31,998 bases of DNA from Candidatus Tayloriibacteriota bacterium. Lineage in GTDB: Bacteria > Patescibacteriota > Minisyncoccia > Phycocordibacterales > PALSA-1337. The stretch covers positions 1 through 31,998 of the forward strand of contig JAPLZI010000038.1 in assembly GCA_026395095.1 (NCBI GenBank), written 5' to 3'. Under the pieces are notes generated by a model that worked only from the letters and a program-made list of their open reading frames with translations, did no database searches and had not been told where the DNA came from. Shown one piece after another: positions 25,267 through 26,967 of this stretch. Position numbers and translations under genes: made by a program. Position 1 is the stretch's first letter. The number at the start of each line of letters is the position of its first letter.

Positions 25267-25887
25267 ATGGATTACATGCTCGCAATCCTTTCCATAATTA
25301 TCCTCATATTTTCGGTCATAGTGCACGAAGTCGCACATGGCTATATGGCTGATCGGCTGGGGGATCCGACTGCCAGACTTTCTGGACGATTGACCTTGAA
25401 TCCGCTGAAACATATAGATCCCATAGGTTCTATTATCGTTCCCCTTATAACCTCACTTGCCGGTTTTACATTCGGCTGGGCCAAACCAGTTCCTTACAAT
25501 CCATACAATCTCAAGAATAAACGGCAAGGTGAATTTCTGATTGCCGCTGCGGGCCCCGGATCGAACCTGTTGATCGCGTTCATTTTTGGGACCATCCTAC
25601 GGTTTATTGATCTTAGTTCGCCATCGATGGCGCCGGTGATAACAATTTTTGCTTCTATAGTAATCATAAACATCGTGCTCGCAGTTTTTAATCTCATCCC
25701 ATTACCACCCCTCGATGGATCAAAAATACTTTTCTCTATCATGATGCCGGATCAATATGGACGAGCCCGAATGATCCTCGAACAATACGCGCCGATTTTC
25801 GTCCTCATAGTGGTGCTTTTCCTGTGGCAAATTCTTGCGCCAGTTATCCTGTGGGTATTTCAACTTTTTACGGGGATCAATCTGTAG
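25267..25887 (+). CDS. Site-2 protease (M50 family) membrane metalloprotease
   Basis: HEVAH zinc motif, GDPTARLSGRLTLNPLKHID, AAAGPGSN, FNLIPLPPLDG. Confidence 0.93.
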   Translation: MDYMLAILSIIILIFSVIVHEVAHGYMADRLGDPTARLSGRLTLNPLKHIDPIGSIIVPLITSLAGFTFGWAKPVPYNPYNLKNKRQGEFLIAAAGPGSNLLIAFIFGTILRFIDLSSPSMAPVITIFASIVIINIVLAVFNLIPLPPLDGSKILFSIMMPDQYGRARMILEQYAPIFVLIVVLFLWQILAPVILWVFQLFTGINL

Positions 25888-25911
25888 GGGAGTTGTTGTT
25901 CATAATGCCTA

Positions 25912-25939
25912 TTGACAGATTTTTGGAAAGTAATACCAT
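25912..25939 (+). promoter_or_regulatory. Sigma70 promoter TTGACA-N16-TACCAT
   Basis: Consensus -35 with TAnnnT -10; no ORF follows within 400 nt. Confidence 0.6.
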
Positions 25940-25945
25940 GCTCAT

Positions 25946-26362
25946 TTGTCGGGTAACGAGGGGTGCAACCTGAGAAAGGCCGACCCCAACCGGACCCACA
26001 TGGTAGTAGTGATAGTGGTTAGTTCGTGATAAGTAAACGTCAGCCTAATGCCCAGCTCTCCGAAGGCAGGAAGTGTTAGGATAACTGGCGTCTTGCTACT
26101 AGCTAGCCGAAAGGTTGGCTAATAGTCGAAGCGTAATACGGGCCTTCGTGGTTCCGTCGGTAGCTAGTGATTTCGTCGTAACCAACCCGATTTGGTGATC
26201 TCGATTTGGTGATTTGAGTCGGATGGACCCTTCGCCTTCACAGCTCCAAAAACAAAGTGCTCGGCGCCTTAGGCGACCAGCACACCCTGGCAATGTTTCG
26301 TTGCGTCATCCACACTGATACTGTGGGAGAATGCAATAAAACATCGCCGGGGTCTTTTTTTT
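25946..26362 (+). ncRNA. Candidate ~410-nt structured ncRNA (family not recognised)
   Basis: Own promoter and terminator. Helices with plus-strand G-U pairs: 26003-26009/26093-26099, 26037-26043/26085-26091, 26044-26048/26076-26080, 26100-26121 (GAAA loop), 26127-26148, 26257-26283. Confidence 0.6.
26285..26362 (+). terminator. Long rod hairpin followed by T8
   Basis: CCCTGGCAATGTTT/AAACATCGCCGGGG outer stem, inner TTGCGT/ATGCAA and CCACA/TGTGG, T-run 26355-26362. Confidence 0.7.
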
Positions 26363-26378
26363 GTTTTGATCCTCATTC

Positions 26379-26407
26379 TTGCAAATGCGGTTTGTCTTTG
26401 ATAATGT
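26379..26407 (+). promoter_or_regulatory. Putative rpsL promoter TTGCAA-N17-TAATGT
   Basis: Hexamers and spacing; lies just after the terminator. Confidence 0.5.
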
Positions 26408-26544
26408 ACTCCCACGGCCCACAGAGGGTAAAAAATCAATTATTAAGGCAAGAATGAGTAATCGCCTCGGCTCGCTAGGGCTAAAAGCGGTGAAAAAGTC
26501 AATCTTGCATAGCATTAAAGCCTAAAAAGGCGCCGCATTATAAA

Positions 26545-26967
26545 ATGCCAACAATCAATCAACTCACAAAGTCGAACAGGAGACGTTTCAAGAGCAAGTC
26601 GAAATCTGTTGCCTTGACTCGCACATTTAATTCCATCAGGAATCAGCCGGTATTTTTTCCGGCACCATTCAAGCGTGGCGTATGTGTGAAAGTCACTACC
26701 AAGACTCCTAAGAAGCCGAACTCGGCTATCCGCAAGATCGCCCGCGTCCGCCTCACGAACGGTATGGAAGTCACAGCATATGTTCCGGGCATGGGACACA
26801 ATCTTCAGGAACACGCCGTGGTCCTCCTCCGCGGTGGCCGCGTCAAGGATGTAGGTCTCCGATATTCTATCGTCCGCGGAGTCCTCGACTGCGCTGGTGT
26901 GGAAGCTAGGAGAAAAGGTCGCAGTCAATACGGCAACAAGAAGCCAAAGGCCGCTAAGGTCGCCTAA
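26545..26967 (+). CDS. rpsL: 30S ribosomal protein S12
   Basis: [32 protein letters not shown]. Confidence 0.98.

Follow-up and report, generated by a model that had tools for sequence, protein, structure and literature searches.

The 657-nt gap between the gene for an M50 (site-2) protease (25267-25887, + strand) and rpsL (26545-26967, + strand) holds what is very likely a real structured-RNA gene, and the best reading of the data as a whole is that this is probably a stand-alone, lineage-specific gene for a structured non-coding RNA with a putative action in trans. All coordinates refer to the window, the whole stretch of 31,998 nucleotides that was analysed. The locus carries independent marks of a non-coding RNA gene, namely a promoter of its own that is conserved in position, an intrinsic terminator, and a conserved structure with compensatory changes. 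The first-pass annotation, made from the window sequence, had proposed a stand-alone large non-coding RNA of unknown class, and this proposal is supported in that no Rfam family matches the element, homologues with compensatory changes exist, and RNase P RNA and tmRNA are encoded elsewhere in the genome. As judged from sequence comparison it is a new and narrow RNA family, for which no described family was found to match.

The source genome is an 836-kb Parcubacteria/Paceibacteria assembly of 68 contigs that is 88% complete, in which rpsL is followed downstream by rpsG and then fusA. Two studies yielded at least 13 independent assemblies that contain the identical 657-nt intergenic region, and since these contigs were assembled independently the locus represents real DNA rather than a chimera. 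The RNA region has a G+C content of 0.48-0.52, which is like that of coding DNA, against 0.31-0.39 for other nearby intergenic DNA. The element has the same orientation as rpsL and adjoins the rpsL promoter directly.

At its upstream edge is the consensus-like promoter that had been pointed out, with TTGACA at 25912-25917, a 16-nt spacer and TACCAT at 25934-25939, which together agree with the consensus at 10 of 12 positions. From this near-consensus sigma-70 promoter transcription is predicted to begin at ~25946, and the transcript should start at helix P1 or just before it. That the RNA is made we infer from these signals. The RNA would then fold into an irregular hairpin (D1), a long hairpin (D2) and a set of short hairpins (D3-D5), joined by A-rich linkers and closed by an intrinsic terminator, with the extra helices of the window copy expanding a core of ~245 nt to ~410 nt. 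The features of the window copy, several of them from minimum free energy (MFE) folding, are as follows.

25912..25939 (+): sigma-70-type promoter TTGACA-N16-TACCAT, with a geometry common to all four lineages in which the family is known
25947..26000 (+): predicted domain D1, an irregular hairpin with helices P1, P3 and P4 and a GAGAA apical loop (MFE)
26001..26027 (+): predicted 5' strand of a long-range helix, pairing with 26222-26249 (MFE only; window copy only)
26032..26096 (+): predicted domain D2, a long hairpin with base CGUCAGCC / CUGGCG (MFE)
26100..26121 (+): predicted domain D3, a GAAA-tetraloop hairpin that is elongated here and resembles 16S helix 8 of other CPR
26132..26157 (+): A-rich linker CGUAAUAC and predicted domain D4 hairpin (26138-26157)
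26158..26221 (+): window-specific insert with two tandem copies of the 12-mer CGATTTGGTGAT
26222..26249 (+): predicted 3' strand of the long-range helix (MFE only)
26247..26257 (+): A-rich, predicted single-stranded linker CAAAAACAAAG
26258..26284 (+): predicted additional GC-rich hairpin (window copy only; MFE)
26284..26362 (+): predicted intrinsic terminator, a 70-nt imperfect rod hairpin (26284-26353) followed by T8 (26355-26362)

Most of what the first-pass annotation had described in this region can be recovered directly. The GAAA tetraloop is at 26109-26112, inside the hairpin 26100-26121, and the closing rod hairpin with its T8 tract is present as described; a simple search for terminators overlooked it on account of its long, imperfect stem. 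The internal direct repeat is real, although its length had been given as 11 nt and it is in fact a 12-mer, CGATTTGGTGAT, arranged in tandem at 26188-26199 and 26202-26213 with a 14-nt period. The remaining sequence features that had been listed, including the multi-helix domains, are all there. The view that no credible open reading frame exists also holds, with 4-12 stops in every frame and a longest open stretch of 68 aa, on the minus strand. A pseudogene was rejected as an explanation, the six-frame translation being full of stops, and so was a conserved small ORF, as the ATG at 25938 falls within the -10 element and conservation is lacking in the short frames. The observation that the non-canonical pairs are G-U on the plus strand fits the strand asymmetry in folding energy, which is -159 kcal/mol for the plus strand (z -5.08, with 0 of 100 shuffles as good) and -136.5 for the minus strand (z -2.64).

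Further evidence for a gene comes from relatives. Homologues were reached through the neighbouring protein, in that the closest M50 proteins (81-84% identity) were looked up and their contigs fetched, and by this route three more lineages were obtained that have a unit free of ORFs between M50 and rpsL: L070, L062-L065 (identical to one another) and L072, the last with an RNA identical to that of L015 and G013 and from the same species as the genus representative G013 / L015. Searches with nhmmer, BLAST and covariance models (CMs) found homologues at the same site, and these carry compensatory base-pair changes. The L070 sequence matches window positions 25909-25954, which span the promoter and the transcript start, at 45 of 46 nt (98% identity), and then diverges, with flanks that are themselves diverged. 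By nhmmer the L062-L065 sequence matches the window at E=1e-7, and L062 matches L072 at 8e-8. A CM built from L062 alone (R1) finds L072 at E=3e-9 together with D1 of the window, and a second model (R2), built from L062, L072 and the window D1, scores the window copy at 46.5 bits and recovers the whole length of L070, a sequence on which it had not been trained, with 22.5 bits (E=7e-6).

All four lineages share one architecture. The common promoter is TTGAC(A/G)-N16-TA(C/G)(C/G)AT, the first helix begins ~7 nt past the -10 box, and a terminator with T6-T8 ends the unit. Between them the order from 5' to 3' is D1, D2, D3, an A-rich linker, D4, D5, a second A-rich linker and the terminator, with a GARAA-type loop in D1, the sequences CGUCAG / UGACG at the base of D2 and the linker CG(U/C)AAUAC as shared motifs. 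D1 aligns in all four lineages with compensatory changes in helices 1 and 2. For D2 the base sequence CGUCAG(C/U)C is common to the window, L062 and L072; the CM placed the D2 helix of the window differently than the sequence suggests, so that homology here rests on the sequence. At the position of D3 the relatives have short hairpins. The window and L062 show their highest conservation in CG(U/C)AAUACGGGCC, and in D4, which is helix 7 of the four-row alignment, both sides have changed in 3 of 6 pairs. Where the window has its insert at 26158-26221 the relatives have only the short hairpin D5, and the long-range helix 26001-26027/26222-26249 finds no counterpart in the shorter homologues. An A-rich stretch precedes the terminator in every lineage, with the terminator itself a long rod hairpin plus T6 in L070 and L072 and a short hairpin plus T6 in L062. 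The conserved core is therefore ~245 nt, and the window copy, at ~410 nt, is the largest through genome-specific insertions: the long-range helix, the tandem 12-mer insert, the extra hairpin and the very long terminator.

As MAFFT alignments of the family were structurally wrong, the CM alignment was used to count covariation. The four sequences as aligned have 88.8% of their cells paired, a figure that falls to 76.4% on shuffling, and both sides have changed in 23 of 54 pairs, against 9.3 in shuffled alignments and 2-5 in controls with partners slid by 1-3 columns; these counts come from just four sequences, aligned by fitting to the model, and such fitting inflates pairing. The relatives also fold with unusual stability, with z scores of -4.35 for L070 and -5.40 for L062.

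What, then, of the possibility that the element is not functional, either as what is left of decaying cargo at a hypervariable site or as the 3' UTR or terminator region of the M50 gene? The gap between M50 and rpsL ranges from 195 to 1325 nt in congeners, where it contains unrelated small genes, and no terminator was found to separate the M50 gene from the element, both of which are to be expected on such a reading. The RNA also diverges faster than its flanking genes in both sequence and length, with identities between lineages (as a share of the longer length) of 37-61% for the RNA, against 74-77% for M50 and 82-84% for rpsL. Against this, promoter geometry, start, domain order and helices have all been kept, with compensatory changes, in four species whose synonymous sites should be saturated; the folding z scores lie between -4.3 and -5.4 in three lineages; and the former ORF that decaying cargo might have left is without trace in the six-frame translation of the region. 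Promoter conservation, a transcript start at P1, helices that covary and the fact that a tiny genome has kept the element speak against junk, and a non-functional remnant appears unlikely.

The family is confined to 4 related species, in each of which it lies between the M50 protease gene and a separately promoted rpsL. Of the 93 genomes of the genus, CM R2 detects the family in 2, namely G013 and the genome of the window, and with its filters off it found the family in 0 of 20 further loci; a weak R2 match in L077 was rejected, since it corresponds to a terminator plus the rpsL leader. A BLAST of the RNAs of the window, L070 and L062 against the 93 congeners and 400 genomes of the phylum returned only the own genome and 16S hairpins, and a metagenome scan with the M50 protein reached only relatives at up to 70% identity, none of which has the RNA. 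The carriage by just 2 of 93 genus genomes implies that the family is dispensable for the group.

The slot itself (window 25888-26544; L012-L040 and L062-L075) may be regarded as a hypervariable cargo site. Depending on the congener its cargo includes small membrane-protein ORFs, an XRE-like gene, and NUDIX, lycopene-cyclase-domain and PhyH genes, and the slots of L018, L023 and L037 contain ORF-less promoter-terminator units that have no match to the RNA family of the window. A predicted membrane protein of ~120-127 aa with a WP(N/D)EK motif and its own TTGACA promoter is found at L072:2480-2945 and L016:905-1330, so that this cassette occupies the same slot in two lineages, in one of them beside the RNA and in the other with the RNA missing. 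The sequence at L075:2250-2420, which lies upstream of a PhyH-family gene, resembles by eye the core of a cobalamin riboswitch (GGGAAACGGTGCCAATTCC).

The proximity of the element to the str operon raises a different possibility, which is that it represents a cis-acting leader, with a distal promoter, a long structured leader and a terminator that acts as an attenuator of read-through into rpsL-rpsG-fusA. Such an arrangement would account for the co-orientation of the RNA with rpsL, for its position directly against the rpsL promoter, and for the succession of a strong promoter and a terminator. It would also give a role to the competing pairings that had been proposed; both complementarities are indeed in the sequence, but the proposed switch is unsupported, because comparative data from all four lineages back the local pairing of 25947-25954 with 25994-26000 as helix P1. 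Moreover, the claim that rpsL has a separate promoter is correct, with TTGCAA at 26379-26384, a 17-nt spacer and TAATGT at 26402-26407. This promoter (26379-26407) and the leader behind it are conserved in ~30 relatives that do not have the RNA, which indicates that rpsL is not dependent on it. The last ~150 nt before rpsL (window 26387-26530) are conserved in 30 congeners and the candidate RNA is not, the same promoter and leader are found in relatives with just 195-260 nt between M50 and rpsL, and the str operon of 91 of 93 congeners does without an accessory leader. The terminators, which have T6-T8 tails, are both long and stable, and no conserved antiterminator was seen. Pairing between the RNA and the rpsL leader was rejected, as duplex energies were no better than those of shuffles, and no target complementarity was found in this duplex test. 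Since the rpsL promoter and leader are kept with or without the RNA, the terminators are strong and a conserved antiterminator was not seen, the RNA is improbable as a leader or attenuator, and the rejection of this role together with the arguments against junk is what favours a stand-alone gene whose RNA would act in trans.

The conserved rpsL leader is of interest in its own right. At window 26447-26509 and in L012-L040 it reads GGCAAGAAUGAGUAAUCG, a variable hairpin and then CGGUGAAAAAGUCAAUCUUGC, with a core of GAGUAAUCG, the variable hairpin and CGGUGAA, and in both sequence and arrangement this matches helix 43 of 16S together with the stretches on either side, which read CUAGUAAUCG, hairpin and CGGUGAAUACG, and GCUAGUAAUCG-CAGGUCAGCUAUACUG-CGGUGAAUACG in the genome's own 16S. 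A strict form of this pattern occurs in 23 of 30 rpsL loci of the genus, and its closing pair covaries (AAUCG...CGGUG vs AAUCA...UGGUG). No Rfam family matched this leader. Helix 43 of 16S is part of the S7 binding region, and rpsG is the second gene of the rpsL operon, on which grounds the leader is likely a putative S7 autoregulatory rRNA mimic. A helix 43 copy is seemingly present in every rpsL leader of the genus, and it may prove to be a more general result than the RNA family.

A further explanation is that the element is a divergent member of a class that is already known, be it RNase P RNA, tmRNA, SRP RNA, 6S RNA, an rRNA fragment, a large ornate RNA or an L1-stalk/tRNA-like RNA. A cmscan of the whole window against the 4227 families of Rfam 15 at gathering thresholds gave no relevant match, and with E relaxed to 10 the region 25700-26600 gave just two weak matches, to microRNA models on the terminal hairpin. 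The RNAs of L065, L070 and L072 likewise had no relevant Rfam match, with E up to 10 allowed. The hallmarks of RNase P, tmRNA and SRP had been described as missing, in agreement with the lack of Rfam matches in the region and with ARAGORN, which reported nothing. For RNase P RNA (RF00010) the region has no match at E up to 10 and the genome has a copy at C25:1607-2033 (89.6 bits), and for tmRNA (RF00023) ARAGORN finds none in the window and the genome copy is at C24:15022-15383 (94.5 bits); the question of whether these two RNAs were otherwise missing is thereby answered, both being encoded on other contigs. For 6S RNA (RF00013) there is no match, the architecture is one of many hairpins, and only 2 of 93 congeners carry the RNA. 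No CM match was found to OLE, GOLLD, ROOL, HEARO, raiA, ribozymes, T-box or r-protein leaders, and a tRNA-like or T-arm domain was sought with ARAGORN and with the Rfam tRNA and tmRNA models, none of which matched. A literature search on structured RNAs of CPR gave nothing relevant.

With respect to SRP RNA (RF00169, RF01854), neither the region nor five genomes of the genus gave a match. In G000, G010, G013, G017 and G046 the small and large SRP RNAs, Ffh, FtsY and the Ffh M domain all went undetected, in a set that includes one single-contig genome and one that is 100% complete. The SRP54 and SRP_SPB domains were absent from searches of 3-4 genus genomes in which controls were found in 14 of 14 cases, and no DTAGR GTPase was found in the search for Ffh and FtsY in the genus. 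The loss of ffh and ffs has been published for Parcubacteria (PMC4508563). As the genus is without detected Ffh and FtsY, the RNA is not to be seen as a "missing" SRP RNA.

A point in favour of a known class is the hairpin at 26097-26129, comprising the GAAA tetraloop and its flanks, which has 92-100% identity over 19-25 nt to 16S helix 8 of several CPR lineages. The window RNA aligns with the genome's own 16S no better than shuffles do, and the resemblance was not found in the relatives of the RNA, for which reasons it is read as probably due to chance. A fragment or mimic of the 16S 5' domain (helices 5-13) was rejected, in that one 33-nt hairpin matches and the similarity stops there, and no wider similarity of the RNA to 16S or 23S was found. 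A copy of the 23S L1 stalk (helices 76-78) was sought with a CM (R3) constructed from seven 23S L1 stalks. With this model the 23S of the genome itself reaches 127 bits (E=8e-28) and the four RNAs give no more than ~13 bits (E ~0.8), on the minus strand of L070, and pairwise alignment with the L1 stalk did not rise above shuffles; this candidate too was rejected. With Rfam negative for the window and its relatives, and with the L1-stalk CM, ARAGORN and 6S results all negative, a divergent known class is very improbable. As a separate observation on the rRNA genes of this genome (G000), the 23S gene (contig C53:8828-12368) takes ~3540 nt to cover model positions 15-2044, with roughly 1.5 kb of inserted sequence (an intron or an expansion), and the 16S gene is split across contig ends (C17, C55).

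The rod hairpin has a palindrome-like character, from which it could be argued that the element is a small mobile or repeated piece of DNA such as a MITE, a REP or a palindromic repeat. It is nevertheless single copy, as neither nhmmer --max nor a BLAST with 7-nt words turned up another instance in this genome, it occupies the same site in four species, and no phage match was found, all of which makes a repeat element extremely improbable.

Returning to a stand-alone gene for a structured RNA, the RNA would be one of four known orthologues of a young and fast-evolving family in a small subclade of one Paceibacteria genus. It would be trans-acting by virtue of its fold and not a leader of rpsL, its most likely role being that of a scaffold or decoy for a protein. 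An action in trans that depends on binding a protein is a tentative and putative suggestion, rather less secure than the existence of the gene. More specific roles are speculative, with only a slight chance that it forms the RNA part of a ribonucleoprotein, as yet undescribed, in Parcubacteria that lack SRP, which might be a regulator linked to translation or the ribosome, or else an RNA-based module of defence or counter-defence. The regulator is suggested by the site among ribosomal protein genes, and defence by the fast turnover of the cargo slot. Were the ribonucleoprotein reading true, the rapid divergence of the RNA would reflect co-evolution with its partner.

The family can be set beside RNAs that were themselves recognised by comparative structure. 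Like raiA, ROOL, GOLLD and OLE, all in Rfam, it is ORF-less and multi-helix, and the function of those RNAs was likewise unknown at discovery. It differs from them in that it matches none of them in sequence or structure, is found in four species only, is smaller (a core of ~245 nt) and evolves faster. Generic trans-encoded sRNA genes have the same combination of a sigma-70 promoter, a structured body with single-stranded A-rich parts, and a terminator hairpin with a U tail, but base-pairing sRNAs are much smaller and much less structured than this RNA, which has 245-410 nt and at least 5 conserved helices.

The narrow range of the family and the absence of a functional clue limit its immediate impact, and what is gained is a family of RNA not described before, whose seed alignment and covariance model can be put to use. 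The genomes of CPR are below 1 Mb and have almost no studied non-coding RNAs. In this setting a 410-nt locus that has no ORF, that has a conserved promoter and covarying helices, and that is kept in a genome of 836 kb, likely serves some purpose.
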